This document shows positions 39,214-57,094 of a DNA stretch of 64,000 nt, one piece after another. Location of the stretch: the NCBI GenBank assembly GCA_046075505.1, contig JBJTQH010000133.1, positions 61,497 through 125,496 on the forward strand. Reading direction: 5' to 3'. The position numbers and the translations under genes are program-made. This DNA is from Cyanobium sp. GTDB lineage: Bacteria > Cyanobacteriota > Cyanobacteriia > PCC-6307 > Cyanobiaceae. Every line of letters starts with the position of its first letter. Positions within the stretch are counted from its first letter, which is position 1. The notes under the pieces were generated by a model that was not told the DNA's origin, did no database searches, and saw only the letters and a program-made list of their open reading frames with translations.

Positions 39214-39816
39214 TCAGAACAGCGAAGCAACGGCGCCAAGCAGACCGCTGCCGCCGAGCAGCAAAGCCAGGATCCGCAGGCTGCGATCGCCGCAGCGACG
39301 CAGGAGCAGCGCCACCACGGTGAACACGGCGGCGGCAGCCAGGGAAGCCCCCAGCCACCAGCTCGGATCAGCGCTGGCCTCCTGCCCATGCAGCAGAGCA
39401 TGCACAACGCTGCCAGCGGCGGCGACGGCAGCGGCAAGGCCCCGCAGAACGCCACCGTCGCGGCGCAGACGCTGAACCAGCAGCAACAGTCCGCCGAGGG
39501 CGGCCACCGCCAGGGCCGCCAGACACTCCTGACCCGGCAGGGCCCAGCCCCACAGCCCGAGCCCAGCACCGAGTGCGGCGCCCAGCAGGGCAGGCCAGAG
39601 CAGACGGCGTTCCCCCCTGGTGACCAGCGCGGCCAGTCCCACCAGCAGCAGCAGGTGATCGAGGCCCGTGAGCGGATGCAGCACCCCGGCGGCCAGGGCG
39701 CTGCCCAGCGGAGCGGTGGCCGGCAGGGTATGGGCACCGGCCGGCAGCGCCGACAACAGGCTGAGCCCGAACCCTGCCGATCCCGCCAGAGCCAGGGAGC
39801 GGATGGAAGTGGTCAT
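39214..39816 (-). CDS. hupE: HupE/UreJ-family Ni/Co transporter
   Basis: Signal peptide ending ..PAGAH, HPLTGLDHLLLLVGL motif and ~6 TM segments. Confidence 0.8.
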   Translation of the reverse strand: MTTSIRSLALAGSAGFGLSLLSALPAGAHTLPATAPLGSALAAGVLHPLTGLDHLLLLVGLAALVTRGERRLLWPALLGAALGAGLGLWGWALPGQECLAALAVAALGGLLLLVQRLRRDGGVLRGLAAAVAAAGSVVHALLHGQEASADPSWWLGASLAAAAVFTVVALLLRRCGDRSLRILALLLGGSGLLGAVASLF

Positions 39817-39922
39817 GGCTCAGCGTTCGGTGATCGCAGTGTCACAGTACCGATGGAGCGGATCCGGGACTGTGATCCCGGCATCAGGATCCACCGATCC
39901 CGCGGCGCTGAGAACGGCCAGA

Positions 39923-41239
39923 TCAGCCGAAACCCTTGCCGGCATCACGGGCGACGCAGGCCTGCAGCTGACGCCGCAGGGTGGCGTGATCCAGCTGACG
40001 GCCGATCAGCACCAGCTGGTTGCTGCGCGCCCCAGGCCAGTCGCTGTCATCGATCGAGAAACGTTTGCCGGCCAGGTGAAAGATATGGCGCCGTTCGCTC
40101 TCATTGAACCAGAGGATACCCTTGGCCCGGAACACGCTCCCCGGCAGCTGGTTATCGAGGAAGTTCTGGAACTTGCGCAGCGAGAAGGGAGCATCACTGC
40201 GAAACGACAGTGAAGTGAATCCTTCAATGGCCAGATGATCGCTGTGAGCATGATCATGGCCATGAGAATGACTGTGGGGATGGCCATGCTGGTGATCATC
40301 GCCACCGGCCTGGGCCGGCTCGCCCTCGTGCACGCAATGGCCGTGGTCGTGATCGCAGTCGCTGTGATCGTGATCGCCATGGGCGTGATGATCATGGCTG
40401 TGATGGCTATGGCTGTGATCATGATGCGAGTGATCGTGAGCCTCCTGCTCGTGCACACAGACGCCATGGTCGTGATCGCAGTCGTCGTGGCTCTGGCCGG
40501 CCACCACCTTGTCGCTTTCGAACAGACCGACGCTCAACAGCAGCGGCAGCGGCACCTGGCCCTTCACCGAACGCAGAATGCGAGCCTCCGCTTTGATCTC
40601 ACGCAGCTGCGCTTCCAGCTGCTGCAGGCGTTCCTCGGCCACCAGATCGCATTTGTTGAGCAGCAGCATGTCGCCGTAGACGATCTGGGCGCGAGCCACT
40701 TCACCCTGCAGCAGCTCATCGCTGAAGTTTTCGGCATCGATCAAGGTGATGATCGAATCCAGGCGGGTGAGATCGCGCAGGTCGCTGCCGAGGAAGGTCA
40801 TCGCCACCGGCAGCGGATCGGCCAGGCCGGTGGTCTCGACCACCAGATAATCCACCGGATCGGGGCGATCGAGAATGCGATACACCGCCTCCAGCAGTTC
40901 GCCGTTGATGGAGCAGCAGATGCAGCCGTTGCTCAGCTCCACCATGTCCTCACCGGTGGCGACCACCAGTTCGTTGTCGATGCCGATCTCCCCGAACTCA
41001 TTCACCAGCACCGCCGTTTTCAGGCCCTGCTGATTGGTGAGGATGTGGTTGAGCAGGGTGGTTTTTCCCGCCCCCAGAAAGCCGGTCAGGATCGTCACCG
41101 GCAGACCGGTGCGCCCGTCCTGCAACGCCGCGGCCTCAGGCTGATCTACGGAAATGGTGTTGGTGGCATCGCTGGAGGCCGCAGTGCTGGGGGCCATGGA
41201 ACCGGATTCGCTGCAAGACCCCGATTCTCGCGCCTTCAC
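39923..41239 (-). CDS. COG0523 (CobW/YjiA/ZigA-type) G3E GTPase metallochaperone with an 85-aa His-rich insert
   Basis: GFLGAGKTTLLNHIL P-loop, CICCS motif, ETTGLADP, and a His/Asp/Cys-rich tract at aa 251-335. The start may be ATG at 41197. Confidence 0.9.
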   Translation of the reverse strand: MKARESGSCSESGSMAPSTAASSDATNTISVDQPEAAALQDGRTGLPVTILTGFLGAGKTTLLNHILTNQQGLKTAVLVNEFGEIGIDNELVVATGEDMVELSNGCICCSINGELLEAVYRILDRPDPVDYLVVETTGLADPLPVAMTFLGSDLRDLTRLDSIITLIDAENFSDELLQGEVARAQIVYGDMLLLNKCDLVAEERLQQLEAQLREIKAEARILRSVKGQVPLPLLLSVGLFESDKVVAGQSHDDCDHDHGVCVHEQEAHDHSHHDHSHSHHSHDHHAHGDHDHSDCDHDHGHCVHEGEPAQAGGDDHQHGHPHSHSHGHDHAHSDHLAIEGFTSLSFRSDAPFSLRKFQNFLDNQLPGSVFRAKGILWFNESERRHIFHLAGKRFSIDDSDWPGARSNQLVLIGRQLDHATLRRQLQACVARDAGKGFG

Positions 41240-41376
41240 GGCAGGGCTGAGCCGCAGACCGCAACAGCAGCGACACCGCCCTCACGCACAGGGCCGGACA
41301 GCAGGGACTCCGGAACTCGCCGCTGCTCGACGCCAGAGGGCCGCACCTCGGGCAGGCGTGGCGCGCTGCGGGAGAT

Positions 41377-41787
41377 TCAGCGATCGCCAGCCTGGCGCTG
41401 CCGGCAGCTGGCGCACAGCCCGAAGAATTCCAGGGTGTGAAACAGGGGGGTGAAACCGGCCAGCTCGCGCTCCGGCAACGGCAGATCATGCACCGGGCAA
41501 TGGGCCAGGGTGACGGTGCTGCCGCAGTCGACGCAGGTGAGGTGGTGCTCATCCCGCTCGGTGGGGGCATACAGAGCCTCGCCGCTGGGCAGGTGGCGGC
41601 AGCGCACCAGGCCCCGCTGCTGCAGCTGGCGCAGATGGCGATACACGGTCGCCAGGCCCATCGCCCCGGGACTTTCGCGCAGGCGCGCATGCAGATCCTG
41701 GCCGGACAGTTCGCCGCTGCAGGCGCGCAACGCCGCCAGCAGCAACTCCTGACGGTGGGGCAGAACCGGGGAGGGGGAAGTCGCCAT
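41377..41787 (-). CDS. zur: Fur-family regulator, Zur-like
   Basis: GLATVYRHLRQL HTH, HHLTCVDCG and CASC motifs. It sits directly upstream of the COG0523 gene. Confidence 0.8.
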   Translation of the reverse strand: MATSPSPVLPHRQELLLAALRACSGELSGQDLHARLRESPGAMGLATVYRHLRQLQQRGLVRCRHLPSGEALYAPTERDEHHLTCVDCGSTVTLAHCPVHDLPLPERELAGFTPLFHTLEFFGLCASCRQRQAGDR

Positions 41788-41904
41788 CGCCGCGAAAGGC
41801 CGCTCCTGGTTTTACTCCGGCGACGGTGACAGCCGGGGCGGGGCCACCGGGCAAGAGCCGACGAGACTCCCCAGGCCGCCAGCCGAGGCGCCGGCGGCGA
41901 CCGC

Positions 41905-42429
41905 TCAGGGCGCTTCCCAAGGCTCCGGGGAACAAGCGGCAGGGACAGCCGCCGCAAACCAGTCCGGCCAGGCCTCGTAGCAGGCGGCATTGACCTCGTT
42001 CTCCCGCGCCTCGACGCGCACGCAGCAGCAGCGGCCCCCCTCACGCTCGCGCAGCAGGGCGTTGGCCCACTGCCACACCAGATGGGCGCTGGCCTCCATG
42101 CCGACGTTGTCCATCACGCGCAGATCGAGCGCCCCCTGGGCATGCAGATCCCGCCAGGTGGCCAGAAGCGGATCATCAGCATTGACCAGAAAGGTGTGAT
42201 CGAATTGGTGGCGCAGGCGATCGCGCAGCTCCGAAAGGCTGGAGAAATCGACCACGAAGCCATGGGCATCCAGGCTGTGGGCGCGGAACCAGCAGCTGAA
42301 ACTGCGGCTGTAGCCGTGCACGAAACGGCAGTGCCCCGGGTGGCGCCACTGGCGGTGGCTGCAGGGAAAGCCGCTGAAGGTCTTGCTGCAGCTGTAGAGC
42401 CGGGAGGGGGAGGCGCTGGGCTCGGCCAT
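41905..42429 (-). CDS. 6-pyruvoyl-tetrahydropterin synthase / QueD-like protein (COG0720)
   Basis: CSKTFSGFPCSHRQW..GHCRFVHGYSRSF..GFVVDFSSL aligns by eye to QueD/PTPS. ATG at 42429 chosen inside ORF 41905..43443. Confidence 0.8.
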   Translation of the reverse strand: MAEPSASPSRLYSCSKTFSGFPCSHRQWRHPGHCRFVHGYSRSFSCWFRAHSLDAHGFVVDFSSLSELRDRLRHQFDHTFLVNADDPLLATWRDLHAQGALDLRVMDNVGMEASAHLVWQWANALLREREGGRCCCVRVEARENEVNAACYEAWPDWFAAAVPAACSPEPWEAP

Positions 42430-42630
42430 GGGAGATCCTGCTGGATCCATTGTTCCAGCCCGCATCGGAGCAGTGGGGCCGCGCCGCAGCACCGGCGCTG
42501 CGCGGCCGCCGATCGCAGCAGACGACAACGCCGCGGCGACCAGCCTCCCGCCCCGGCAGGGCTTGGCCCAGGCCGGGCCGACCCGAGCGATCAGGCCCAT
42601 CGGTAGCGTGAATCCAATCGCACAGCCCCT

Positions 42631-43311
42631 GTGTCCTCGAGCCTGCCGGGTCCGGAACTGCTCGCCAACCTGCGCTGGAACCCCGATGGCCTGATCCCGG
42701 CGGTGGCCCAGGACTGGCTCGATGGGGCGGTGCTGATGGTGGCCTGGATGAACCGAGAGGCGCTGCAGCGCAGCCTGGAGAGCGGCGAGGTGCACTACTG
42801 GAGCCGCTCGAGGCAGGAGCTGTGGCACAAAGGAGCCACCAGCGGCCAGATCCAGATCCTCAAGGGGCTGCGCTTCGACTGCGATGCCGATGTGCTGCTG
42901 CTGAGCATCGAGCAGCTCGGAGGCGGCGCTTGCCACACCGGGGCCCCCAGCTGCTTCTACGAGGAGGGTCCGGGAGTGAGTGCCGGCGGGGCGGACGCGC
43001 TGCCGCCACCGGCCGATATCTGCACGGAGCTGTACCGGGTGATCGAAGACCGGCGCCAGCGACCGGAGGCGGGCAGCTACACCAATCGCCTGCTCGAAGG
43101 GGGCGACAACCGCATTCTCAAGAAAATCGGTGAGGAAGCGGCCGAATTCGTGATGGCCGTCAAGGACGACGATCCGGAGGCGATCGCCGGCGAAGCGGCC
43201 GATCTGCTGTTTCACCTGCAGGTGGCCCTGGCCCACCACGGCGTGCCCTGGCGCGCTGTACAGATGATCCTGGCCGGACGTCGCGGGGCGCCCAGGCGTG
43301 AGGTGAACTGA
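42631..43311 (+). CDS. hisIE: bifunctional phosphoribosyl-AMP cyclohydrolase / phosphoribosyl-ATP pyrophosphatase
   Basis: [43 protein letters not shown] (HisI) followed by [18 protein letters not shown] (HisE). GTG start. Confidence 0.92.
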
Positions 43312-43488
43312 CAGGAGCAGGCCCCTTCTGGTGGATAGCGAAGACAGGCGATCGAAGCCATCACACCCGCTCACCATGGGCGCTTTGCTGCCGCTGCTCT
43401 GAACGCAACCACCGATCACGGCGGAGAAGCGCAAGCCGCTCACATGGCCGGATCAGGGCTAATAAGAAACATCAAGAAATAAAAAAAC

Positions 43489-43516
43489 TTGCCAGGGCAG
43501 AATTCACGGCTAGGCT
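43489..43516 (+). promoter_or_regulatory. sigma70-like promoter candidate for the giant locus
   Basis: TTGCCA-N16-TAGGCT, preceded by the A-rich tract aataagaaacatcaagaaataaaaaaac. Confidence 0.3.
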
Positions 43517-43716
43517 ATTAACAGCCGCCAGAATGAAGCGCCATGGACGTTACGACTCAAAATGCCACCTGATCAGCAATGAAACTCCGCAGAGCCCAGC
43601 AGATCCCGTCTATGTCTGACGTCCGGCCCTCAATGAGGGCACAAAAGCGAGGCGCCACGGAAGATATGCCTCTATGCGTTCTTAGGTATTCCAGTTGTGC
43701 GGCGCTTTGTTGCTGA

Positions 43717-45981
43717 TCAAGAAATGCCAAGCCCTTCTGGGGCAACGGTCATTACTACGCATACACCCAGTCGTCGGCGACCTGGCACACAGCCTATTCC
43801 GAGTCCATAACCACGCTTAATCAACTCGGCACGCAGGGCTATCTAGCGACAATTACATCCGCAGACGAGAATACATTTATCTTAAACTACTCCAACGGCC
43901 GCTACACCTACAGCGACCCTGGCGCAGTACCGTATTACGGAAGCACTAAAATAGCAACCGATGTCTTTCTGGCCGGAAGCGACGAAGAATCACAGGGGAC
44001 AGTAGAAGGCAAATGGACATGGGAAAGCGGTCCCGAAAATGGCTTGATGTTCCGAGATGGTAGTAGCAATACTGCTTATACCAACTGGTCACCGGGGTCA
44101 CCGGATAACAAAAATAACCAGGATTTCCTGGTGATGATCACCTCCGGCGGCTGGGGGGATGTCGACCCCAAGGCAGGAATCGGTGGCTATGTGACGGAAT
44201 GGGGCAAAAGCGGAGCCGAATTCAGCGTAACAAGTTTCACGGGAGCCAATGGATACGAGAATGGCACGGCGCCAAAGATGACGATCAACTTTGATCGCTC
44301 GATCCCCAACGATTACGTGGATATTCGTAATGGCAACGCCCTGATCGACATCCCGATCAGCTTCGGCGGCACCGCCGTCATGGGCCAGGACTATGACCTG
44401 ACCGTCAGCGGCGGCAGCTACCAGGGAGGACGGCTCTATGTTCGCAACACGGCGTCGGTGACCCTGACTTTCACGCCACGCAACAACAGCACCTGGCAGG
44501 CTCCACGCACGATCACCGCATCCTTGGGGGCAGACGGCAGCGAAAACATCTATAGCCTCAACGCCAGCAGCGACCAGGTGTGGTTGTTTGACGACGAACC
44601 CCAGCTCAGCCTTGGCCAGGGCGCTTACAAATTCGTCCGCGCCCCCTACACCTACACCACAAGCACCAACACCCTGCCTGCCAGCAACAGCGACTTCAAT
44701 ACCAATGCTGATGTGTTGCTGTTTGATGCCGATGGCATCAATGAATCAGATGCCGTCTTCCGCGGGCAGGGGCTCAACGACGGCTTCGCAGTTCGATGGG
44801 AAACTTACATCCGCATCCCAGAGACGGGAGACTATGTCTTCCGCACCACCACAGACGATGGAGCGAGACTGACCGTCAGAGACAACAATAGCAGTGGCCT
44901 TCACCGGGCAGGATTCGAGCATTGGACGCTCAATTCAGCCACGACTCATAGCACCGGTAAAATTAATCTTACCAAGGGAAATGTTGTCTGGTTGCAGTTT
45001 GACTATTTTGAAAATACCGGTGCGGCCTCCGCGCAACTCACCTGGGATCGCCCCAATGGAAGCAGCGGTACGATCAACAACGAAGTGGTGCCGGCCAGCG
45101 CCATGTTCCTCTCAGAATCCCTGGCGCAGGGGGTGAACCGCAGCGAAACCAGCAGCAATGCAACCAGCCTCGGTTTTCAGCTGTTTGCCAACAAGAGCAC
45201 CAGCAGTGTGACCAATGTTCAACTGACAGCCACGTCAGAAGCCTCCAACTCCACATCCAATACCACGCTTGCTCAACGGCAGACAGACGGCACCAAGGTT
45301 GGCAATGACTATGTGATCAAGGATGGTAGTGAATCAATCAATAGAAGCAGAATTGGCATTAACGGCATCGTCAATGGAGTCGTCCTTGCCCCCTTCGGCG
45401 TGAATGCCAATGGGGCAACAACAAGCCGTGATACCAACACCAGCACCACGCCCTCGCCCGTGAGCGGCGTCCCCCTGCGGATGAATGTCAACCAAGATGA
45501 TCCCTATGTCATCACCTACAACAGCAGTTCATGGAATATTGCCGAGGCAAAGCAGAGCGAAACCTGGACACTGAGCGTCTATGCCAAGGCAGACAGGCCC
45601 ACAAGCGGGCAACTCTTTATTTTTGAAGCCAATGACAGTGGAGCAGCCATAAGGAACTCTGCATCCACGATTCAACTGGGCACGGAGTGGCAGCGGTACA
45701 CATTCAGCTACACGTTTACAGACCCTGCTTCTCGTTATATCCAGGTCAGGCTTGATGGGCCTGATTATGGGGGCAAAGATGCAGTGATATGGTGGGACGG
45801 AGTGCAAGTTGAACGGGCAAACCAGGCGAGCCCATTTACCGCCTCGTCTCAAATAAATCGTTTTGCCACGAAATTCAATCCCCTGGATCTCCACAGCGGT
45901 GGCTTCGGAACCTCTGACTGGAGCCTCGAGCGGGCCTCTGGAGGCCTTCATGCTCTAGGTCATTTAATATCGAGGTGTTGA
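43717..45981 (+). CDS. giant-locus segment A: C-type lectin-like domain, Calx-beta-like repeats, PA14 and a CBM-like jelly roll (no canonical start for the lectin domain)
   Basis: The frame is open from 43717. The ORF track starts at TTG 44044, but the same frame upstream reads FWGNGHYYAYTQSSATWHTAYSES..LATITSADENTFIL..KWTWESGPENG, the N-terminal half of the CTLD that continues as YTNWSPGSPDN..QDFLVM..GGWGDV. PA14: FAVRWETYIRIPETGDYVFRTTTDDGARLTV..QLTWDRP. Confidence 0.8.
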   Translation, partial: SRNAKPFWGNGHYYAYTQSSATWHTAYSESITTLNQLGTQGYLATITSADENTFILNYSNGRYTYSDPGAVPYYGSTKIATDVFLAGSDEESQGTVEGKWTWESGPENGLMFRDGSSNTAYTNWSPGSPDNKNNQDFLVMITSGGWGDVDPKAGIGGYVTEWGKSGAEFSVTSFTGANGYENGTAPKMTINFDRSIPNDYVDIRNGNALIDIPISFGGTAVMGQDYDLTVSGGSYQGGRLYVRNTASVTLTFTPRNNSTWQAPRTITASLGADGSENIYSLNASSDQVWLFDDEPQLSLGQGAYKFVRAPYTYTTSTNTLPASNSDFNTNADVLLFDADGINESDAVFRGQGLNDGFAVRWETYIRIPETGDYVFRTTTDDGARLTVRDNNSSGLHRAGFEHWTLNSATTHSTGKINLTKGNVVWLQFDYFENTGAASAQLTWDRPNGSSGTINNEVVPASAMFLSESLAQGVNRSETSSNATSLGFQLFANKSTSSVTNVQLTATSEASNSTSNTTLAQRQTDGTKVGNDYVIKDGSESINRSRIGINGIVNGVVLAPFGVNANGATTSRDTNTSTTPSPVSGVPLRMNVNQDDPYVITYNSSSWNIAEAKQSETWTLSVYAKADRPTSGQLFIFEANDSGAAIRNSASTIQLGTEWQRYTFSYTFTDPASRYIQVRLDGPDYGGKDAVIWWDGVQVERANQASPFTASSQINRFATKFNPLDLHSGGFGTSDWSLERASGGLHALGHLISRC

Positions 45982-48900
45982 CTGATAGCTACGCAGAAAA
46001 TACCGAGTCGGTCACACTGACGCTCGGCAATGGAAGTGGCTATGGCATCTCCAACGGCAGCCAAACCCTCACCATCGGCGATGACCCCTTCGTCGTGTCG
46101 CTGGAGAAGGGACAGGATGCCAGTGAAGGGGGAAGCAGCGACGCTGATCTGGGCTGGTTCACGATCACATCCAATAAAGCGGCACCCAGCGGTGGCCTGC
46201 GGATTCGCTACGAAATCTCCGGCGGCACAGCCGAGCGCGGCTCCGATTATCATGCACCCAAGGCAACACTGAGTACCACAAATTTCAATCCAGAAAACAT
46301 TGTTGTATTGCCGAGCAACGCCACCTCGACGCAAATCTATATCTCTGCCATCACCGATGCCATCCGGGAAGGCGACGAGACCGTCACCCTCAAGCTGATT
46401 CCCAATGTTGAAACAGACGACAAAGGATTCAGCTTTCAGCGCTACAGCATCGACAGCAGTAACAGCCAAGCGACCCTGACCATCAACGACAGCACGGCCT
46501 ACAGCCCCAACCTCGTGGTCACGCCTGCTGACCGCACCGGAGTTGCCACCATCCGTGCCCAGTTGCTGAATGGAACGCAGCAGGCCGCTTTCGATGTACG
46601 CCTCACCAGCCAGCCCCAGGCGGCGGTGACGATCCAGCTCAGCGGCCCCGCCGGCTCCCAGCTCTCCAGCCAGCAGCTCAGCTTCTCCAGCAGCAACTGG
46701 ACCCAGCCCCAACGGATCACCGTCACGAATCTGGCCAGCAACCAGGCCAGCGTGGTGAACCTGAGCAGCAGCAGCAGCGACAGCCGCTACACAGGCCTGA
46801 GCACCAGCCAGCAGATCATTCCCTCCAGCTGGCCCTCGGATCTGCAACTGAACCTCTGGGAGGGGGGCGCTCTGGTCCCCGGTCAGCCGCCGGCCAGTGT
46901 GCAGGCCCTCGACGGTTCCGAAGGCAGCAACGACCGCCTGGGATTTGAGCTGATCCTGGGATCACCGGTGGTGGGCAATCCAATCGAGCTGCTCTATCAA
47001 CTCAGCGGTGGGGCTGGCTTCCTCCTCGATGGCAGCACAGCCGATGCGGTGCATACACCGGAACGGACCTACCTCCCGCTTGTGCTGAACAACAGCAGCA
47101 GCAGCGGCGGCTTTGCCTATGCCGAGTTCAGTGGCCTGAGCACCGTGAGCAACAGCGGCGAGATCAGCGCTGAAGCCTGGGTGCGCCGCGATGCCGTCAC
47201 CACGGCCGCAGGGGTGCTGGAGTTCACAGACAGCAACGGCTTCAACCTGATCAGCCTCGGCTTCCACGAGGCCACCGGCAAGCCGACACTGGAGATCCGC
47301 GATCCTGCCGGCACGCGGCTGCTGCGCCTGATCGCCGAGGGGGAACTGGGACTGCAGGAATGGAACCATCTGGCCTACAGCGTCGATGCCCACGGCCTGG
47401 CCAGTCTTTACGTCGATGGGGAGCTGGCAAAACAGGGCCAGCTGAGCTATGGCTCAGGCCTGAAGATTTCCCTCTATGAGGGCAAGCAGTTTGAATCCCT
47501 GCGCAACACCAGCGCCGCCACCAGCATCGATTTCAACGACAGTGTCGACACGGCCGAGGGAGGGGATGGCGAGACCTTCTCGGTCCGGGCCAGCGGGCAG
47601 ATCCAGGCACGCAGCAACGGCGACAATGCGTTTGCCGTGCTGTCTGATGACGGCGTGCGGGTGAAGGTGAATGGCCTGCTGGTGGTGGATAACTGGACAG
47701 ACCATGGCGCCACATGGAACAGCTTCACCGTTCCCAATCTCGTGGCTGGTGAGTGGTACGACATCGAGATCGAATACTACGAACACACTGGCTATGCGCA
47801 ACTCCAGCTCGCCGATCAACCGAACGGTACGCCGATCACAGCCCTGCGCCATGTGCCGCTCTACACCGGCACACGCAGCCTTAATTCCATCGGCCGCACG
47901 GCTGTGGGCAGCAATGGCACGGGCTATCTGAGCGGAGCTGTGCGCGGCGTGGGCATCTGGAACGCCGCCCGCAGCCAGGACCAGATTCAGGCCTCGATGC
48001 TGGCCGCTGCACCGGCAGGCACCGGTCTGATCAGCGGGCTGCCGCTGAACGGATCCACCGCCAACAGTGTGCAGGGGGGCCCGGCAGCGGTGCTGCGCAG
48101 CGGCTCCACCAACAAAGCCGCCTTTGCCACCACTCCCTTCCATGGTCTTCAGGTCCCTGCGGGAGCCTCCAGCGTCAGTCTGCCCATCGTTCCCATCGAC
48201 GACCTCACGGCCGAAGGCACGGAAGGCCTGAGCCTGACCCTGCTGGACGCCGGCCGCTACAGCCTGGGCGTCGGGGCCGACAGAGCAACAGCCGAGCTCA
48301 GCGACAACGAGAGTGCCGCTGTGCAGTTTCTGACCGACGGCGCCCCGACCAGCTCCGGCACGGACACGACGCCCGATACGGCCTGGAGCAGCAGCGCCCA
48401 GTTCCGCGTGCGTGAAGAAGACGTGGCGGAGGAGAGCATCACCCTGCTCGGCATACGCCTGGGCAGCCAGCCGAGCGCGCCGGTGACCCTGACGCTGGAT
48501 CCGGCCTCCTTCCAGAGCTCCGAGCTGAATGTGTTCAATCCGGCCGATCCAGGCGCGGCATCGGTCGCGCTGCTGTTCAACCCTGACAGCTGGGATCAGG
48601 TGCAGACCCTGCATCTGCAAGGTGTGGATGACAATCGCGACGACGACGACAAGGCGCAGACGCTGCGGTTCAGCGTCGGCAGCAGCGACGCCGTTTATGC
48701 CGGGCTGCAACCCTCGATCTCGGTGCTCACCCTCGACGACGACGCCAGCGAGGCCGATCCGTCGTTGGCCACCGACCAGAGCGCCACGGCGCCGCTGATC
48801 AGCTTGAGCAGCCCCAATCGCACCTCCATCAACGAATCCGGCAACGACAGCGCCACCTTCACGATCAGCCTGCCCCAGGCCGCCAGCGAGGAGACGCTGG

Positions 48901-51900
48901 TGTTCCTCGAGGTGGATCCCCGCTCCAGCCAGGTGGTGGACAGCGACGTCGTGATCACGGCCGGCAGCGGTGTGCAGTCCCTCGCCGGCCTGACGCGGTT
49001 CAAGGCCAACAGCGGCGCTGCCGAAACGAGCAGCCTCGATAGCGATGGCATCGAGGAGAGCAGCACAGCCTTTGCCAATCAAGGCCAGACAGGGGATTTC
49101 AGCAGCACCTGGTCGGGCTATCTCTATATTCCGGAGAATGGCAGTTACAACTTCAGCATCCCTGTGCAGGGAGGGGTCAGGTTCCGCCTCGATAATCAGG
49201 TGCTGATCGATAAGTTGTTTGATACACAGAGCACCTGGAGCACCGGCCCGCTGCAGCTCAACCGCGGCGATTTCCTGGCGATCACCCTCGATTACCAATC
49301 CTTCAACACCAGCGCCCCCAGCGTTGCACTGCAATGGAGCCGGCCCAGCGATGGCGGCACGACCACACGGGAGGAGGTGGTGCCGAGCCAATACCTGAGC
49401 CGCACCGATGGCTTTACATTGTTGATTCCCAAGGGCAGCAGCAGCGGCAGCTTCACAATCGAAGGAGCACCGGACCAGGTGGATGAAAATAATGAAGATC
49501 TGGTGACATCCCTGCTCGAAAGTCACGGGGTTGAAATCGTTGTGAAAAAACAAGTCAGCACCAGCCAGCTGACGGTCACGCTGGCCACCACCGACCGCGA
49601 ATCGATCAATCTGGCCGCAGGCACGGTGCTCACGTTCGGTGAAGATGTCGCCAGCACGAGTGAAGCCAGCGAGGCTCAGAGCAGTGCGATCGCCACATTC
49701 ACGCTCAGCTCTGCTGCCACGGTTCACCGTGATCGCAGCACCACACTGACGGGAGATCTGGTCTGGACAGCCGATGGACAATCCAGTCCCTACAGCAGTT
49801 CCATCGTCGGTCTGGTGGCTGGTCAGGGTAGCGGTCTCTACCAGGTTCCCGATCCCACCGTCATGCTGACCCTGACAGCACCCCTGACGGCCAATGGATC
49901 CACGGGCTATCTCGCCAGCCTGAAACTGGAGGTCACCAACTTGGGCGGCATCACCCTGGCTGCCGGCACCATGCTCACCTATGTGATCGCAGGTAGCGAC
50001 GGCGGAACGGACAGCGAGTTCATCGCCCTGGAACTGACGAACACCCTCACCCTTCAAAGCGGAGAAACACGGAACAACGTTGCGGTGAACCTGCTCGCCA
50101 AGAGCAGCACGCTGGATCCCACAGCGACCGATACCCCGCTGCAGGGTCTGAGCAGTGCCTATGAGATTCCGAACAGCTCTGTGGTGCAGCTGAAGGATGA
50201 CGACACAGCCGGACTGCTGTTCTCCCTGGATGCGGCCGGCACCCAGCCGATCGATGCCAGCCGCGTCAGTCTCAGCGAACAGGGCTCGAGTCTCACCCGC
50301 TACGTGCGGCTGACCAGCCAACCCGCAGACACGGTGACCGTGACTGTGGAAACCACCGATGCCAGCGAGGCGCTGCTGCAGGTGCCGGGCAGCGATGCTG
50401 CATCGGCAGGGGCTCGCGTCGCTCTCACCTTCACGCCCGGCGACTGGCAGAGCGGCCAGGCCTTCACGATCCTGCCCGCCGACGACAGGCTCGTGGATGG
50501 GGCTGTGGATGTGGATCTGCGGGTTCGCAGCACCAGCGGTGACAGCTTCTACGCCATCAATGAAGACGTCTTACCCAGGCTGCCGCTGAAGGTGAAGGAC
50601 AACGACACGGCGAATCTTCTGGTTGAACTGCAGCAGAGCAGCATCAGCAAGGCTGGCAATGGTTTCATCAATCTGAGTCTCACATCGCAGCCCACAGACG
50701 ATGTCATTGTCAGCCTGATTCCCGACGACGAGCAGTTCACGATCAATGACCGCAGCATCGGGCGGGGCGAAACACTGGTGTTCACCCCCGAGAACTGGTC
50801 CACAGTTCAGAGCGTGTCGCTATGGGCGGTGGATGACAACAGCGTCGAAGAGATCAGCTCCAGCCAGCTGCAGATAGGCATCGCCTCCAACGATGCAGCG
50901 TTCAACGCACTCAGCGACACCTCCGTTCGGATCGACATCGTTGACAACGATCCACCCCAGGCTCAGATCGCCCTGGTGAGCGACAGCAGCGAAGATGCAA
51001 GGCCGGGAGGCTTCCAGATTGCCCTCTCGAATCAGGCGCCAAGCTCGGAAGGATCCACTGGGATTCTGGTGAATTATGAGATCACAGCTGTCAGCCTTGA
51101 TGCGACCTCCGTCTTTCCATCCACACCATCAAGCATCGATGAGATTACCCAGTCACCTGGCGCTATCACCGGCCAGGTGCGGATCGCTCCAGGCAAGAGC
51201 AGCAGCGATGTGATTGTGGTGCCGATCGACGATTTCGTGGCGGACAAGGAAAACAAACGCTTCACCGTACAGCTGAAACCCGGTGATGGCTACAGCGTCA
51301 GCAATGACAGCGCCACCAACAGTTCCACGGTCCAGATCATCAATAACGATCAGGCCGGTGTGGTGCTCTTCACCTCCGGTGAAAGGGTACGGGTCAAGGA
51401 ATCTGGCGGTGAGGCCACCTACCAGCTGGCTCTGCTCAGCCAACCGACGGCGGATGTCACAGTCACCATTGGGGAACTGATCCCGAGCGGAGGCAGTCGC
51501 CAACTGGGAAGCAACAGCAGCGCTTATTCCGAAACAAAGACCTTCACCCCCGGCAACTGGTACATCCCACAGCAAATCAGCGTTCAGTCTTACGACGACG
51601 CCAGGATTGAAGATGGCGACGGTGAGAACAAGTTCTCCGGCATCCATGCTGCCCAGTTGAGCTACAGCTTCAGCAGCAGCGACAGAAATTATGATACGGC
51701 CAGCAACAAGGAGAACGCCAGCTACTTCACCAACACACTGCAGCAGACGGTGGACGTGGTCGACTATGAGCTGCCTATTGAAACGGCCAATGCTCTGCAG
51801 TCATCGCTGACCTCGCTGCAGGAGGGTATCGAAAGCCTGTCGCTGCCCATTGTCGGCAGCCTCGATGGCAAAACGGGTGGTGGCCTGCGCAAGTTCATCA

Positions 51901-54900
51901 CCAACCTGGTGGCCAAAGTGCGTGACATCGGCACGCCAACCCCCAGCAAGCTCAGCCAGCTGCTGAGCAAGGAAATCGCCGGAGCTCTGGGGATTCCGGA
52001 AAATGCAGTGACCGTGAGCCTGACGATGCAGGGAACCGAGGCCGTTGTTGTCGGCTTCCAGTTTGCCGATGCGTACGAACTGTTCAGCGTGCCCCTGGCG
52101 GCCGACTTCGGCCTTCCGGGCCTTGGCTTCAAGACCGAAGGCACACTGGACGCCGCTTTCAGCTATGGCGCCGGCCTGGAACTGGTCCTACATCGCAATG
52201 GCGACATCTATCTTAATACCGAATCAGGCAAGACCTATCTCAACGCCAATTTCAACACCAGCCTGTCACCCGACTTCAGGCTGACTGGGGGGCTCGGCTT
52301 TCTGCAGTTGGATGCGCGCAATCAAGCCAGTCCCAATGATGATGTCGTCATCAATGACGAACCGGCCAGCACCGAGCTGAACGCCTCGTTTGATCTCAAT
52401 CTCAACGGTGGCAGTGACGACAAGCTCTCCATCAGCGACCTGACCAGCATCGATCTGGAGGGTGTGTTCCAGTATGCGGTCAATGGCGATGCCGCCATGT
52501 CGTTCGGCGTCACCACCAGTGTCAACGGCTCAGCAGCCATCCCGTCGTTCAGCTTTGATCTCTCCAGCAAGCTGGCTCTCTTTGATTATTCCAATTCAGA
52601 CGAAGCAATCGATTCCAACAATACAAGGCCTATCTATTTTGACAACATCAAACTCGATCTCGGTTCCTTCATCACCAAGATGATGGATTTAATCGTGGAT
52701 GGACTGGACTCGATCCTGAATCCGCTCTATCCAATCGTGGATGCACTCTACAGTGACACCAGGATCTTCGACACGATCGGGATCGCCAACACCATTGACA
52801 CCGATGAAGATGGTGCTGTGTCGGCCATCGACCTGGCCTCCTGGTTTGCCAACTTTTACGCCAAGATCGACGCAGGTCAAGGCGAGCGACTGAAGGCCTC
52901 CATCGATGCCACGATTGAATTCCTGGACATGATCAAGGGCGTCATGGATCTGATCCGTGACCTGAGGGAAATGAGCGAGCAGGGCAACTTTTATGTCGAC
53001 TATGGCAGTTATGAGCTGCAAGAATTCAGTGCCGCTGATGCCTCTGCGACTACAGATGATCAGGATGCTGAAGGCAATTCCAGTCTTATTGATAACAATG
53101 CCGAGAATCTCAGTGATGACACCGCCAGCCAGGCCGCTGAAGGCGGCAGCAGCGAAACAGGAAGCAAGAGCAGTAAGTTCAGTGAAATCATGGCCCAGCT
53201 CGAGGAGCTCGGATTTGTTATCCCACTGATCGATGATCCCAAGAATGCGATCAAGCTGCTGCTCGGACAGGACGTTGATCTGTTCCAATGGACCATGCCC
53301 GGCATGGGTATGGAGTCGGAGATTGAACAGAGCTTCCCGATCTACCCAGGCATCGAAGGCCTGATCGAAGGAGGATTCGGCGTCGATGCCAACATCGGCT
53401 TCGGATTCGACACCTACGGCCTCAATGAGTGGAGGAAGAGCGGCTTCAAAGGGAGCGAAGCCTGGAAGGTGTTCAATGGCTTCTATGTGTCCGACTGGCT
53501 GGACGGCGAGGATGTGCCGGAATTCAGCCTCGACGCCACGATGGGGGCCGGTCTGGGCTTGTCCGCCTTGGTGGTGCGAGCCGACATCACCGGCGGCCTG
53601 GAAGCGGCCGCCAGTTTCGATCTGCTCGATGAGGGAGAGATCGCAGGCCAATCGGATGGCAAGATCCGCGGCACCGAAATCAGCAGCAACATCAGCAACC
53701 CGCTGGATCTGTTTGAGCTGGTTGGCAGTCTTTCAGCCTATCTGAAGTCCAAGGTGCAGGTGGGTATCGACATGGGCTTCTATTCAATCTGGGATACAGT
53801 ATGGAAGGAAACACTCGCCGAAATTCCCCTGTTTGAATTTGGGGTTGGTGGTAGCTACGGCAGCGGCACTGTATCCAACGGGTACATGCAAGGCACCACC
53901 GTGTTCTGGGATAGCAACCGAAATTTCACGCTGGATTCCTATGAACCCAGCAGCGTCACCACTCAGGATTCCCACTACAACCTGCGCATCGAGCATCGCA
54001 GCTTTGATCGCAATCGCAACGCCAGGATCGATCTCGCGGAAGGTCGCCTGATGGCCTTCGGTGGCGTGGATCGCAGCACGGATCTACCGCTGGAGGTGCC
54101 GTTCCTGGCACCCCTCGGAGAGATGATGACGCCCCTCACCACCCTTCATACCCTGGCCCTGGAGGCGGGCTACGACGAGGAGGCCATCTCTGCCTGGATG
54201 GATCAGGCCTTCGAGCTGGATGGCTTCGATTACCTCCATCGGGATCCGGTCCTGGAGCTCAGGCAGCTGGGGTCGGAGTGGTCGACCTCACAGCTCGCCC
54301 CCCTGGCTGCCTATATCGCCCATAGCAAACTGCACTTCGGCTGGGATGTGCTGGTGCATTCGCTCCAACAGTTGCTCTCAGAGCACTATCCGAACGATCT
54401 TGAAACGGAAGTGGAGCTGATCAGCGCTTTCAGCCAGGAGCTGCTGGCCCTTCCGGCCGACAGCCCCATCGATGATCGGCTCGCCAACGCTGCCCTCGGC
54501 ACGATCGCCCGACAATCGCCTGAGCTTGCCGCCGACCTCGCTCCCCTCGCCGCACTGGCGGCGGCTCTGGCGGCCAATGCCAACTGGGATCTCTGCCAGA
54601 AGATGGATGCTCTGTTCAGCTCAGCCCAACAAGGCAACCTCAGCCTCAGCGAGGCTCTGCGATCGATCAACAAGCTCAAGCAGGCTACCTTTGAGCACTA
54701 CCGCGCCAGCACCGACAGAATCAGCGAGGGGCTTTACGCCATCAGTGATCCCACAACACTCAGGCATACCGTTCAACAACGTCTGACCAGCATCTACAGC
54801 CGCTTCGTCAAGGATCAGGCTCTGCAACCTGGCTCCGGCGATCGTGCCGCCCATCGCCTCCAGGTGCTGGCCAGGCCCGAATGGACACTCTCAAGGGGAG

Positions 54901-56150
54901 CCACGCTCACCACGACACCGTTCTCGTCGCTCCACTCCCTTGCCCAGGAGGGAGTGAGATTGAGCGGAAATCAGCTTGACTTCGGATTGCGGCGTCAGCG
55001 ATCCAGCGACAAGACCTCCGAGGCGGATGCGCAGACCAGCACTCGCGTTCTGATGCATCAGGATACCTTTGAGATCCCCAACAGGGAAGACGGCACAGCC
55101 TTGGCTTACTACAGCAAGACCGATCGCAACCCCCGTCCATTCCTTTATACGCCTAACAGCGAAACAGGAGCTCGCTTCTTCGACCTTGGCTCTGATCTGG
55201 GTCCTGTACTGGAACTCAGCCTTCGCGATGGCCAGCGCGGCGATCGTGATCCCCACCCCGATGTGATCGGCGCAACCGGCGCGATGGCGACACTGATGCA
55301 GACGCATCACTTTGTCGAGACAAGCCAGGCCAATGTCTTCGGCATCGCTGCCAGTGACACCAGCCATGCCAAGAACAACCATGCCAGGAACAACCAGGCT
55401 GCAGCCGTTTTTGTCGGAACAAGGATGCTCAGCGCTCCCAGCAGCTCGAACCAGATCGGCTGTCTGGTCCTGCGCCGGCGGGAAACCTGGGATCCCGAAG
55501 CCATCACACTCGGCGACTTGAAGGAGCGGATTCACCTTCTCGGCGGCACAGTGGCAGGCAGCCTGTCTTCCGAATTCGGCCCTGGGATGAAGCTGCGGCG
55601 GGATCTGCAGCTCACCAGCGGACATCAGGTCGTGTTCCTCGAAATCGTGGACAGCAGCCTGGAGGATCTGGGACCCGCCCACGCCTCCCTCGCCAGCCTG
55701 GGAACCCGGATCGTTCCGCTCGAGAGCAGGCGGCCGGCCTCAGAGGATCAGCTGCGGCTCCATTCACCGCAATCGCAGCTGAAGCTCAACCTCAGCCTCA
55801 GCCACGGCGCCCCGGGGCTGGACGGGTTCCTGGCCCGTCAGCAGCATCAGCTGCCGGTGCTCGATTTCAGCGGCCTCGCTGATATGACGATCGAGGGCAG
55901 ACTGCAGCTCAGCGAGGAAGGATCAGGGAAGCGAACAGTGGGCTTCTACGAAGTGCTCGATGCCAGTGGTGCCGTCAGGGATCCACTCACGGGCCGAACC
56001 GTACGACCAGGTGAGGCCGACTACCGGCGCGCCGCCCTGCACGCCGAGAATCTGTTCGCGCCCTTGAGCGGACTGGAAGCGGGCCATCCTCAGAGCTCCA
56101 GCCGCAACGTCTTGATCCAGACCGATGCGATGCTCGCCCCTACGCTGTGA
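45975..56150 (+). CDS. giant-locus segment B: 3391-aa repeat protein (Calx-beta-like and SQP-type beta-sandwich repeats, LamG, two PA14, large unassigned module, DUF4114-like tail)
   Basis: Uninterrupted 10.2-kb ORF. Calx-beta pattern (..GSDY..IREGDETVTLKL..TINDS); LamG (ISAEAWVRR..WNHLAYSVDAHGLASLYVDGE..GVGIWNAARSQDQI); PA14 (FSVRASGQIQ..VLSDDGVRVKVNG..YYEHTGYAQLQL and WSGYLYIPENGSYNFS..GGVRFRLDN..ALQWSRP). Confidence 0.9.
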   Translation: MLTDSYAENTESVTLTLGNGSGYGISNGSQTLTIGDDPFVVSLEKGQDASEGGSSDADLGWFTITSNKAAPSGGLRIRYEISGGTAERGSDYHAPKATLSTTNFNPENIVVLPSNATSTQIYISAITDAIREGDETVTLKLIPNVETDDKGFSFQRYSIDSSNSQATLTINDSTAYSPNLVVTPADRTGVATIRAQLLNGTQQAAFDVRLTSQPQAAVTIQLSGPAGSQLSSQQLSFSSSNWTQPQRITVTNLASNQASVVNLSSSSSDSRYTGLSTSQQIIPSSWPSDLQLNLWEGGALVPGQPPASVQALDGSEGSNDRLGFELILGSPVVGNPIELLYQLSGGAGFLLDGSTADAVHTPERTYLPLVLNNSSSSGGFAYAEFSGLSTVSNSGEISAEAWVRRDAVTTAAGVLEFTDSNGFNLISLGFHEATGKPTLEIRDPAGTRLLRLIAEGELGLQEWNHLAYSVDAHGLASLYVDGELAKQGQLSYGSGLKISLYEGKQFESLRNTSAATSIDFNDSVDTAEGGDGETFSVRASGQIQARSNGDNAFAVLSDDGVRVKVNGLLVVDNWTDHGATWNSFTVPNLVAGEWYDIEIEYYEHTGYAQLQLADQPNGTPITALRHVPLYTGTRSLNSIGRTAVGSNGTGYLSGAVRGVGIWNAARSQDQIQASMLAAAPAGTGLISGLPLNGSTANSVQGGPAAVLRSGSTNKAAFATTPFHGLQVPAGASSVSLPIVPIDDLTAEGTEGLSLTLLDAGRYSLGVGADRATAELSDNESAAVQFLTDGAPTSSGTDTTPDTAWSSSAQFRVREEDVAEESITLLGIRLGSQPSAPVTLTLDPASFQSSELNVFNPADPGAASVALLFNPDSWDQVQTLHLQGVDDNRDDDDKAQTLRFSVGSSDAVYAGLQPSISVLTLDDDASEADPSLATDQSATAPLISLSSPNRTSINESGNDSATFTISLPQAASEETLVFLEVDPRSSQVVDSDVVITAGSGVQSLAGLTRFKANSGAAETSSLDSDGIEESSTAFANQGQTGDFSSTWSGYLYIPENGSYNFSIPVQGGVRFRLDNQVLIDKLFDTQSTWSTGPLQLNRGDFLAITLDYQSFNTSAPSVALQWSRPSDGGTTTREEVVPSQYLSRTDGFTLLIPKGSSSGSFTIEGAPDQVDENNEDLVTSLLESHGVEIVVKKQVSTSQLTVTLATTDRESINLAAGTVLTFGEDVASTSEASEAQSSAIATFTLSSAATVHRDRSTTLTGDLVWTADGQSSPYSSSIVGLVAGQGSGLYQVPDPTVMLTLTAPLTANGSTGYLASLKLEVTNLGGITLAAGTMLTYVIAGSDGGTDSEFIALELTNTLTLQSGETRNNVAVNLLAKSSTLDPTATDTPLQGLSSAYEIPNSSVVQLKDDDTAGLLFSLDAAGTQPIDASRVSLSEQGSSLTRYVRLTSQPADTVTVTVETTDASEALLQVPGSDAASAGARVALTFTPGDWQSGQAFTILPADDRLVDGAVDVDLRVRSTSGDSFYAINEDVLPRLPLKVKDNDTANLLVELQQSSISKAGNGFINLSLTSQPTDDVIVSLIPDDEQFTINDRSIGRGETLVFTPENWSTVQSVSLWAVDDNSVEEISSSQLQIGIASNDAAFNALSDTSVRIDIVDNDPPQAQIALVSDSSEDARPGGFQIALSNQAPSSEGSTGILVNYEITAVSLDATSVFPSTPSSIDEITQSPGAITGQVRIAPGKSSSDVIVVPIDDFVADKENKRFTVQLKPGDGYSVSNDSATNSSTVQIINNDQAGVVLFTSGERVRVKESGGEATYQLALLSQPTADVTVTIGELIPSGGSRQLGSNSSAYSETKTFTPGNWYIPQQISVQSYDDARIEDGDGENKFSGIHAAQLSYSFSSSDRNYDTASNKENASYFTNTLQQTVDVVDYELPIETANALQSSLTSLQEGIESLSLPIVGSLDGKTGGGLRKFITNLVAKVRDIGTPTPSKLSQLLSKEIAGALGIPENAVTVSLTMQGTEAVVVGFQFADAYELFSVPLAADFGLPGLGFKTEGTLDAAFSYGAGLELVLHRNGDIYLNTESGKTYLNANFNTSLSPDFRLTGGLGFLQLDARNQASPNDDVVINDEPASTELNASFDLNLNGGSDDKLSISDLTSIDLEGVFQYAVNGDAAMSFGVTTSVNGSAAIPSFSFDLSSKLALFDYSNSDEAIDSNNTRPIYFDNIKLDLGSFITKMMDLIVDGLDSILNPLYPIVDALYSDTRIFDTIGIANTIDTDEDGAVSAIDLASWFANFYAKIDAGQGERLKASIDATIEFLDMIKGVMDLIRDLREMSEQGNFYVDYGSYELQEFSAADASATTDDQDAEGNSSLIDNNAENLSDDTASQAAEGGSSETGSKSSKFSEIMAQLEELGFVIPLIDDPKNAIKLLLGQDVDLFQWTMPGMGMESEIEQSFPIYPGIEGLIEGGFGVDANIGFGFDTYGLNEWRKSGFKGSEAWKVFNGFYVSDWLDGEDVPEFSLDATMGAGLGLSALVVRADITGGLEAAASFDLLDEGEIAGQSDGKIRGTEISSNISNPLDLFELVGSLSAYLKSKVQVGIDMGFYSIWDTVWKETLAEIPLFEFGVGGSYGSGTVSNGYMQGTTVFWDSNRNFTLDSYEPSSVTTQDSHYNLRIEHRSFDRNRNARIDLAEGRLMAFGGVDRSTDLPLEVPFLAPLGEMMTPLTTLHTLALEAGYDEEAISAWMDQAFELDGFDYLHRDPVLELRQLGSEWSTSQLAPLAAYIAHSKLHFGWDVLVHSLQQLLSEHYPNDLETEVELISAFSQELLALPADSPIDDRLANAALGTIARQSPELAADLAPLAALAAALAANANWDLCQKMDALFSSAQQGNLSLSEALRSINKLKQATFEHYRASTDRISEGLYAISDPTTLRHTVQQRLTSIYSRFVKDQALQPGSGDRAAHRLQVLARPEWTLSRGATLTTTPFSSLHSLAQEGVRLSGNQLDFGLRRQRSSDKTSEADAQTSTRVLMHQDTFEIPNREDGTALAYYSKTDRNPRPFLYTPNSETGARFFDLGSDLGPVLELSLRDGQRGDRDPHPDVIGATGAMATLMQTHHFVETSQANVFGIAASDTSHAKNNHARNNQAAAVFVGTRMLSAPSSSNQIGCLVLRRRETWDPEAITLGDLKERIHLLGGTVAGSLSSEFGPGMKLRRDLQLTSGHQVVFLEIVDSSLEDLGPAHASLASLGTRIVPLESRRPASEDQLRLHSPQSQLKLNLSLSHGAPGLDGFLARQQHQLPVLDFSGLADMTIEGRLQLSEEGSGKRTVGFYEVLDASGAVRDPLTGRTVRPGEADYRRAALHAENLFAPLSGLEAGHPQSSSRNVLIQTDAMLAPTL

Positions 56151-56344
56151 TCGGGACCGGCAAGAACAGCCACACGTACTTTGCGATCCCAGCTGCCAAC
56201 TCCGATCAGATTCAGCATGTCCAGATGCCGAGCCAGAATACGTTTGCCTTTGAGGCCAGCCATGGCGGTGTTGATCGCAACTTTACTGATGTCGTGATGT
56301 CTTTTCAGCCGCTTCGCCTCATCGCTCCAGACCCCACCAGCTGA
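56147..56344 (+). pseudogene. detached C-terminal piece of the giant locus (end of a DUF4114-like domain) in the -1 frame
   Basis: TYFAIPAANSDQIQHVQMPSQNTFAFEASHGGVDRNFTDVVMSF matches the DUF4114 pattern as I recall it (YF.f..aNpDg.dH...lg.NtFgFED..ggD.DFND.v). It continues the domain begun at RTVGFYEVLDASGAVRDPLTGRTVRPGEADYRRAAL in segment B. Confidence 0.65.
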
Positions 56345-56356
56345 CGTCGCCGCGTT

Positions 56357-57094
56357 GTGATGTCCACGGTCATCACCCGCTCGCTTCGCTCGCCTCTCCC
56401 CCTGTGCTTCTTGGCCCGCCCGGCAGAGGTGGTCGCCCCCGAGCTGATCGGCTGCCTGCTGGTGAAGCGCCAGGCGGATGGTGCGTTGCTGTGGGGTGTG
56501 ATCGTGGAAACGGAGGCGTATTCGCAGGAGGAGCCCGCCTGCCACGGCTACCGCCGCCGCACCCCCAGCAACGACACCCTGTTTGGTGAGCCCGGGCGTT
56601 TCTACGTCTCCATGAGCTACGGCATGCACCACTGCGTCAATGTGGTGACCCACCGCTCCGACTGGGCCAATGGCGTGCTGCTGCGGGCCGCCTGGATGCC
56701 TGCGGAACCGGAGCGCACCTGCGGCGGCCCGGCCTTGCTGGCGCGGCGCTTCGGCATCGATCGCCGTCACGACAACCAGCCGCTTCTTCCCGATGGCGGT
56801 CTGTGGCTGGCTCCCCGGCCGCCGGAGCTGGCGGCGTGGCTGACCTACAGCGCCCAGCCGTCACCCCTGGTGCAGAAGGGCCGCATCGGCATCCGCCAGG
56901 CCCAGGAGCTCCCCTGGCGCTGGTATCTGCGCTGCAGTCGCAGCGTCAGCCGTCGCGCTGCCGGGGATCGGCCGCCCCGCGGCGATGGCCTCAAGGCCCT
57001 GCTGGGCGATCGGTGGGATCCGCTCTCCACCCTCCCATCGGCCGGCCATCCCATCGCAGGCCAGTCCGATGAGCTTGGACGCCAGCCCGTCTGA
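56357..57094 (+). CDS. mpg: DNA-3-methyladenine glycosylase (Mpg/AAG family)
   Basis: [61 protein letters not shown]. Confidence 0.88.

Follow-up and report, generated by a model that had tools for sequence, protein, structure and literature searches.

A giant gene spread over three frames in a low-GC island of Cyanobium sp. is probably a decaying pseudogene with a frameshifted C-terminal DUF4114 module

The stretch of DNA analyzed here (64,000 nucleotides, in the following termed the window) belongs to Cyanobium sp. (assembly GCA_046075505.1, contig JBJTQH010000133.1, positions 61,497 to 125,496) and holds a giant coding region on the + strand, which spans approximately 20% of the window and changes frame twice (43717-45978, 45918-56147, and 56015-56341, with homology of the last part, the tail, beginning at 56138). 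We consider it probable that the frame breaks are true mutations and that this picocyanobacterium of the Cyanobium/Synechococcus type carries the locus as a decaying pseudogene inside a low-GC island. In comparison with its intact relative P0003 (3,989 amino acids, GCA_965042675.1, contig CBCEMI010000017.1, locus L081, 10001-21970), the gene is disrupted into three frames and carries three inactivating lesions, only one of which is an indel in a homopolymer. Because the gene has no start codon, shows a second frame switch 10 kb upstream of the terminal one, and ends in an eroded tail, the locus was classified as a pseudogene in decay. The repaired gene would comprise approximately 12.6 kb and 4,230 codons and probably encoded a multi-domain cell-surface protein of the carbohydrate-binding or adhesin-like type. 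Its parts and lesions are as follows:

43714..43716, + strand: lesion 1, an in-frame TGA just 5' of the first codons homologous to P0003; no start codon
43717..45978, + strand: segment A, 754 codons, with an N-terminal region without Pfam match, PA14, and an insert weakly resembling CBM_4_9; shares 56% identity with P0003 residues 7-660
45918..45957, + strand: lesion 2, where segment A gives way to segment B in another frame; the BLAST match is taken up again in that frame at 45939-45957
45918..56147, + strand: segment B, open over 3,410 codons and carrying PA14, Laminin_G_3, and Calx-beta; a single alignment with P0003 residues 553-3922 shows 63% identity
55584..56141, + strand: upstream three-quarters of the C-terminal module, corresponding to segment B residues 3223-3408 with ...DAMLAP at the end; 150.8 bits over module profile positions 3-185
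56137..56140, + strand: lesion 3, a CCCC run one base short (GCC CC_ TAC); the frames abut at profile position 185 and P0003 residue 3922
56138..56344, + strand: module tail with the DUF4114 core in the -1 frame, PYAVIGTGK...DPTS followed by TGA 56342-44; annotated separately as a 65-amino-acid gene from GTG 56147
56148..56150, + strand: premature TGA, preceded by two codons (Thr-Leu) that are out of frame after the presumed deletion
56252..56290, + strand: degenerate acidic putative Ca2+ motif, E-A-S-H-G-G-V-D-R-N-F-T-D versus E-D-x-x-G-G-G-D-x-D-F-D-D in the family

The original prediction, made from the sequence alone, had stated that a terminal DUF4114-like domain is interrupted by a premature TGA and continues in the -1 frame. 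This was borne out, since a profile of the complete module spans the repaired junction with 224 bits. The end of segment B at TGA 56148-50 was likewise confirmed in the translated frames. The long frame, open from 45918, reads ...NVLIQTDAMLAPTL (also shown as ...SSRNVLIQTDAMLAPTL) up to this stop, and the -1 frame reads (V)IGTGKNSHTYFAIPAANSDQIQHVQMPSQNTFAFEASHGGVDRNFTDVVMSFQPLRLIAPDPTS, or ...(AR)PYAVIGTGKNSHTYFAIPAANSDQIQHVQMPSQNTFAFEASHGGVDRNFTDVVMSFQPLRLIAPDPTS with more upstream sequence, up to TGA 56342-44. The text RTVGFYEVLDASGAVRDPLTGRTVRPGEADYRRAAL is found upstream as quoted in the original prediction. Two of its statements had to be modified. The tail had been placed from 56147 to 56344; its end is correct, but the frame switch lies in the C-run 56137-56140, 8-11 nucleotides upstream of the premature stop. 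The split unit had been given as approximately 75 amino acids, and while this unit is indeed cut, the module comprises approximately 240 amino acids and starts near 55584.

The position of lesion 3 was derived from the codons on both sides of the junction. The window reads ATG CTC GCC CC_ TAC GCT GTG, whereas P0003 has ATG CTC GCC CCC CTG GCC (ATGCTCGCCCCTACGCTG in the window versus ATGCTCGCCCCCCTGGCC in P0003). The junction proline is encoded by CCT (56139-41) in the long frame and by CCC (56138-40) in the tail frame, and residue 3922 of P0003 was matched by tblastn at both of these codons. The long frame continues L-A-P with T-L-stop, and the tail frame gives P-Y-A-V-I-G. In the homologue alignments, Ala-Pro is nearly invariant at this site within L-A-P-[YF]-A-x-V, and the addition of one C restores ...DAMLAPYAVIGTGK..., which bears the family motif L-A-P-[YF]-A. 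The repaired LAPYAVIG yields a single module-profile match of 224.3 bits, compared to 217.3 bits for the join LAPTL|VIG of the original prediction. The pattern of GC content by codon position (position 2 lowest, position 3 highest) also moves from the long frame to the -1 frame at the junction. A contraction from C5 to C4 is the most parsimonious event that can be read from these sequences, and the TGA at 56148-50 is a consequence of the deletion rather than the lesion itself.

Relatives of the module were retrieved with an exhaustive HMMER search, in which the joined 250 residues were used as query against 1.84 billion representative proteins. This resulted in 933 matches, 310 of them at E<1e-10. 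Continuity across the junction was judged on the best 150 of the 933 matches, most of which cover query positions of approximately 2-240 unbroken across 185|186 and form the very end of their proteins, the longest of which has 7,854 amino acids. The sole fragment-like match, P0007, is the 65-amino-acid tail open reading frame (ORF) of the window itself and is known from one NCBI contig (125,906 bp). A word-indexed protein search with a joined query of 237 amino acids gave no match, where the exhaustive search succeeded; in a second word-indexed search, the nearest relatives did not exceed 52% identity over the full query, and the best partial matches reached 66% (47% of the query) and 71% (20%). 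The nearest homologue of the module, P0001 (51% identity), is encoded on a contig of 3,246 bp (ERZ1426753), and its call of 244 amino acids begins 68 nucleotides from the contig end; rather than a small protein, P0001 probably represents the C-terminal piece of a further giant gene.

A module profile was built from 79 intact homologous C-terminal modules and used for a six-frame scan of the whole window. Profile positions 3-185 were found in the long frame (150.8 bits) and positions 185-241 in the -1 frame, starting from the Pro codon 56138-40 (54.9 bits, E=3.9e-16). The scan detected one copy of the module in the window and no other copies inside the giant protein. In 77 of the 79 homologues, the module ends at most 5 residues from the C-terminus. 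With PF13448 (85 model positions, gathering score 27 bits), the tail alone scored 23.9 bits (E=8.4e-5, model positions 23/27-82 of 85), which is below the gathering score. The match, which the original prediction had required across the joined frames, was obtained on the tail side, whereas the upstream part did not match and the joined or repaired variants reached 23.5-23.8 bits, without a gain and without discrimination among the junction variants. Joining the frames leaves the Pfam score unraised because the model is too short, representing no more than the final third of the module. PF13448 is also present in P0003 and P0151-P0155. The conserved unit is approximately 240 residues long, and Pfam's DUF4114 represents its final 60-85 residues in these proteins.

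The tail has lost conserved residues to an exceptional degree. In an alignment of 80 sequences (the window and the 79 homologues), 14 of the 23 tail columns that are at least 75% conserved are retained in the window, the lowest value of all 80 sequences (homologue mean 0.91, sd 0.07), whereas the upstream part of the module keeps an ordinary 32 of 40 such columns. The deviations in the tail are V187I, F210V, L213P, G214S, G219A, D222A, G227V, D230N, and D232T. Among these, D222A, D230N, and D232T affect columns conserved to 99%, 99%, and 90%, respectively, and the motif E-D...D-x-D-[FY]-[DN]-D is absent from the window, which reads FAFEASHGGVDRNFTDV in place of the family consensus FGLED..GGGDxDFDDL. 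The eroded acidic signature noticed in the original prediction is hence real. Over the tail, the identity among intact homologues amounts to 64-66%, while the window shares only 43-52% with them. In a first relative-rate count with P0003 as sister and P0005 as outgroup, 19 changes in the tail were specific for the window compared to 6 for P0003 (p=0.015); the corresponding numbers were 15 versus 24 for the upstream module and 215 versus 160 for the remaining protein. The count was repeated with other sister and outgroup choices, including P0001 and P0002 (see below).

The remaining two lesions lie at the 5' end and at the border of segments A and B. The three frames of the window align collinearly with P0003 (identities of 56% for residues 7-660, 63% for 553-3922, and 42-44% for 3922-3987), and both share the order PA14, Calx-beta, PA14, and C-terminal DUF4114 as well as the junction DNA ATGCTCGCCCC.... 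In contrast to the window, P0003 is encoded in one unbroken frame with an ATG start, has an intact acidic motif (EDLYGGGDRDFDDL), lacks the CBM_4_9-like insert of approximately 180 amino acids, and is located in another genomic neighbourhood. The equivalent of its Met1 in the window (43705-07) is CTT. P0003 starts with MAVTTGNARPFWGNGHYY, whereas the window shows a stop followed by SRNAKPFWGNGHYY, the surrounding translation being C-C-stop-S-R-N-A-K-P-F-W-G-N-G-H-Y-Y. The tblastn match begins with P0003 residue 7 at nucleotide 43723, and the first in-frame start, TTG 44044, lies 109 codons into the protein, inside the first domain. The ATG close by (43724-26) belongs to a different frame.

For lesion 2, an alignment by eye gave GTSDWSLERASGGLHA in frame A, continued by (S)RSFNIEVLTD in frame B, compared to GTMSWQPNQAFGTLQNVKSFDVKVLTD in P0003. 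This suggests a deletion of one nucleotide near 45955 (gct-ct-agg), outside a homopolymer, but the exact alignment is ambiguous as the registers obtained by BLAST and by eye differ. The start listed for segment B (GTG 45975) is an artefact of the ORF listing. At approximately 45400-45940, about 180 residues of segment A are missing from P0003; they show a weak match to CBM_4_9 (E=1.8e-4, below threshold), and the comparison of both sequences suggests a domain insertion relative to P0003.

The GC content amounts to 0.52-0.62 in the giant gene compared to approximately 0.69 in its flanks, the low-GC stretch extending from 43000 to 56500. The giant gene is absent from all 80 pyrB-linked loci of Cyanobium, Synechococcus, and Prochlorococcus genomes (best pyrB identity 84%). 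Due to the low GC content and this absence, the gene was assigned to island DNA. Several of the loci stem from metagenome-assembled genomes (L011, L022, L037, L048, L051, L064, and L071) whose titles name Bradyrhizobium, Bordetella, Bifidobacterium, Acidovorax, Klebsiella, Chitinophaga, and Pimelobacter; their pyrB is 78-81% identical to that of the window, and the titles look mislabelled. In picocyanobacteria, loss-of-function mutations in island-encoded surface genes confer phage resistance (PMC5520035). The giant gene resembles the island surface genes of such phage-resistant marine strains in its location in a low-GC variable island, in the surface-type protein, and in the loss-of-function lesion; it differs in that the link to phage selection is drawn here by analogy alone. 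Following this analogy, the loss of the protein may have been neutral or advantageous, for example as an escape from phages or grazers.

The structure of the module was modeled with AlphaFold2 from the repaired 250 residues and an alignment of 30 sequences (predicted local distance difference test, pLDDT, 90.3; predicted template modeling score, pTM, 0.75). In the model, the junction falls into the middle of a strand (180-187), and the tail supplies strands 194-197, 210-214, 217-220, and 234-244. A Foldseek search against the PDB gave 5a6q_A (LecB/PA-IIL) as the top match (E=0.013, probability 0.99, target-normalised template modeling (TM) score 0.56) and no match at E<1e-3. For the last two-thirds of the module, the model predicts a beta-sandwich similar to that of the Ca2+-dependent lectin LecB/PA-IIL. 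LecB (1GZT, 5A6Q), PA-IIL, CV-IIL (2BOI), and RS-IIL (1UQX) matched the repaired model with probabilities of 0.82-0.99 and target-normalised TM scores of 0.51-0.56, whereas BclA (2VNV) reached only 0.21 and 0.29, respectively. From these model comparisons, we infer that the domain may be a lectin.

The family motif GGGDxDFDD aligned with D96-D104 of LecB in hhalign (probability 2.75%, which is not significant alone; the LecB sequence used was an exact match to the PDB). Neither the PDB sequence searches nor hhalign gave sequence-level significance for a relation to LecB. In the hhalign register, N and T of the window take the places of LecB D101 and N103, so that the Ca2+ ligand set, which we take to be that of 1GZT, is incomplete. 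Both the motif and its LecB counterpart are C-terminal. The C-terminal carboxylate of LecB helps to bind Ca2+, and, by analogy, such a role might explain the strict C-terminal position of the module. The module differs from LecB, which is a free tetramer of 114-amino-acid subunits, in having twice its length, an extra N-terminal part, and a location within a giant protein.

A relation of DUF4114 to these lectins has been described together with a putative Ca2+ pocket containing an Asp without which PilY1.1 of Myxococcus does not function (PMC9109919), and in an Acanthamoeba adhesin, DUF4114 was reported to be the domain that binds mannose (PMC11934332). The tail of the window resembles DUF4114 of Myxococcus xanthus PilY1.1 and the Acanthamoeba mannose-binding protein in matching PF13448 (E=8.4e-5) and differs from these proteins in its sub-threshold score, its position at the end of a module of approximately 240 amino acids, the replacement of three acidic positions, and the cut by the frameshift. 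A relation of the front half of the module (profile positions 11-98) to fasciclin-I (FAS1; PDB 1o70, E=0.0014) was also considered; it is marginal (E=0.0014-0.024 over the PDB sequence searches), unproven, and probably spurious.

Taken together with the model, the sequence comparisons are consistent with the following course of events. In the conserved strand L-A-P-Y-A-V, a run of five Cs within the Ala-Pro codons would have shrunk by one C, upon which translation would run two codons out of frame and end at TGA 56148-50. The product, if made, would lack the last four beta-strands of the model, half of the cut strand, and the acidic metal-binding loop. Such a truncation would cost approximately a quarter of the module, including the metal/sugar loop, and is predicted to leave the terminal domain unable to fold or bind. 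The orphaned tail would then have shed conserved residues.

Several observations weigh against a pseudogene in decay. Segment B is open for 3,410 codons, which sits awkwardly with an eroded tail, so the decay would have to be recent or partial, or the truncated product would still be under selection. Lesion 3 is located in a homopolymer, a classic site of sequencing and polishing indels, and no second assembly of the locus was found. The acceleration of the tail is moderately significant; when P0001 or P0002 is used as sister, the upstream module is also accelerated approximately 1.5-fold, and Fisher tests of tail versus upstream module gave p=0.04 to 0.8 across the sister and outgroup choices. 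Some of the tail deviations, for example G227V, are common to P0001 and represent a trait of the lineage and not decay. Finally, the lectin assignment is weak, as it combines weak structural scores (E=0.013, TM 0.56 on the target) with analogy from the literature.

The main alternative, conceivable if unlikely, is that lesion 3 is a sequencing or assembly artefact and that the genome has five Cs and one continuous frame, of which the consensus dropped a base. The site is a C-run for which intact P0003 has GCC-CCC, the tail frame is free of stops for 65 codons, and a single assembly (one NCBI contig) carries the sequence. Exact look-ups of pyrB and the 65-amino-acid ORF yielded no contig, a scan of genome contigs with the joined C-terminus no relative, and metagenome contigs, searched for an exact 41-mer and for a protein pattern, no second copy of the locus. 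An indel error would not, however, cause the record loss of conserved residues in the tail or its excess of lineage-specific changes. One of the other lesions lies outside a homopolymer, and another consists of a missing start and an in-frame stop, which is not an indel. Moreover, the three lesions are concentrated in a gene covering approximately 20% of the window, while the approximately 33 other genes in the 64 kb give essentially full-length profile matches and show no frame breaks. We infer that the deletion of lesion 3 lies in the DNA and not in the assembly. Examples of the full-length matches (profile positions of profile length) are:

purA 2-429/430; proS 1-557/559; Psb27 2-135/135
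transaldolase 2-388/392; PsbO 2-242/242; pyrB with both domains complete

Programmed recoding, in which the P-site tRNA-Pro slips by -1 from CCU (56139-41) to CCC (56138-40) or the RNA polymerase adds a C, so that some full-length protein is made, is highly improbable. By the logic of the sequence, C-CCU permits re-pairing after a -1 slip, and the resulting LAPYAV is the family consensus. The zero frame GCC CCT ACG, on the other hand, contains no X XXY YYZ heptamer, and the A-site codon ACG cannot re-pair. The 131 nucleotides downstream have a minimum free energy of -32 kcal/mol compared to a shuffle mean of -33.0 (z=0.30), and the surroundings were found to be free of terminator and promoter-like features. 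For transcriptional slippage to be efficient, a run of four Cs is too short. The frameshift is not conserved, given that the reading frame passes unbroken over the site in all 79 full-module homologues and in P0151-P0155; the conserved residues of the tail are eroded, and the gene lacks a start codon. The -1 ribosomal frameshifting raised in the original prediction thus found no support in a slippery heptamer, a downstream structure, or conservation. There is equally little chance that low-level slippage on C-CCU or polymerase stutter restores LAPYAV, which would yield mostly truncated and a little complete lectin-like protein as a newly arisen, crude dosage switch.

A contingency switch, by which a poly-C tract would toggle the terminal domain via slipped-strand mispairing, is also very hard to credit. 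It would suit a giant surface-type gene in a variable island, the tract varies between C6 in P0003 (including the C of the next codon) and C4 in the window, and the loss of island surface genes is a known route to phage resistance (PMC5520035). Contingency tracts are typically homopolymers or repeats of at least 7 units inside a coding region, though, and the longest run in the gene has 6. The gene region contains 39 C-runs of at least four bases, so that the run at lesion 3 is unremarkable. Tracts of 4-6 bases are too short for high-frequency phase switching, and the other two lesions are irreversible by slippage. The least probable explanation is a split gene whose 65-amino-acid tail would be made as a protein of its own, starting at GTG 56147, and would complement the domain cut short: the GTGA overlap with the TGA is a typical coupling arrangement and the ORF was called by an annotator, but no homologue is split likewise, the cut falls mid-beta-strand and leaves the separate piece without P-Y-A of this strand, the conserved motif is degraded, and a cytoplasmic peptide of 65 amino acids has no evident route to an exported giant protein.

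Downstream, the giant gene is followed by an intact gene and then by pyrB:

56357..57094, + strand: methylpurine-DNA glycosylase, intact; PF02245 profile positions 2-178 of 181

As the glycosylase gene begins 13 nucleotides past the stop of the tail, the tail is considered the natural 3' end of the giant gene. An antisense ORF of 226 amino acids (56090-56770) was rejected as coding by eye, since its translation is rich in Arg, Ala, and Gly and it lies mostly antisense to the glycosylase gene, which has a strong Pfam match. Upstream of the island, the region 34660-43452 encodes a Fur-family regulator, a solute-binding protein, an ABC permease, a CobW-type GTPase, and a PTPS-domain protein, all with full-length domain matches; the cluster looks like a system for metal (possibly zinc) uptake or sparing. 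Long frames with coding-like GC content at the third codon position (GC3) and without Pfam or NCBIfam match were found at 31946-34558 (-), 29274-30200 (+), 30260-31288 (-), and 9948-11720 (-). The frame of 871 codons among these has an unusually high GC content at the second codon position (0.66).

For the annotation, a pseudogene in decay means that the gene of 3,391 amino acids, the gene of 65 amino acids, and the upstream ORF of 645 amino acids (44044-45981) are pieces of one broken gene. They merit a pseudogene label, and the public 65-amino-acid "protein" is a fragment. The analysis also provides a clearer definition of the terminal domain, which is confidently foldable in the model, resembles LecB, is almost always C-terminal, and is tractable for binding studies via an intact homologue. 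The event itself is ordinary, and picocyanobacteria are well known for losing such surface genes. Provided that the lesions are real, one more giant island-encoded surface protein would have been discarded, here by a freshwater or brackish picocyanobacterium, which would fit the view of such proteins as expendable targets of phage and grazer pressure.

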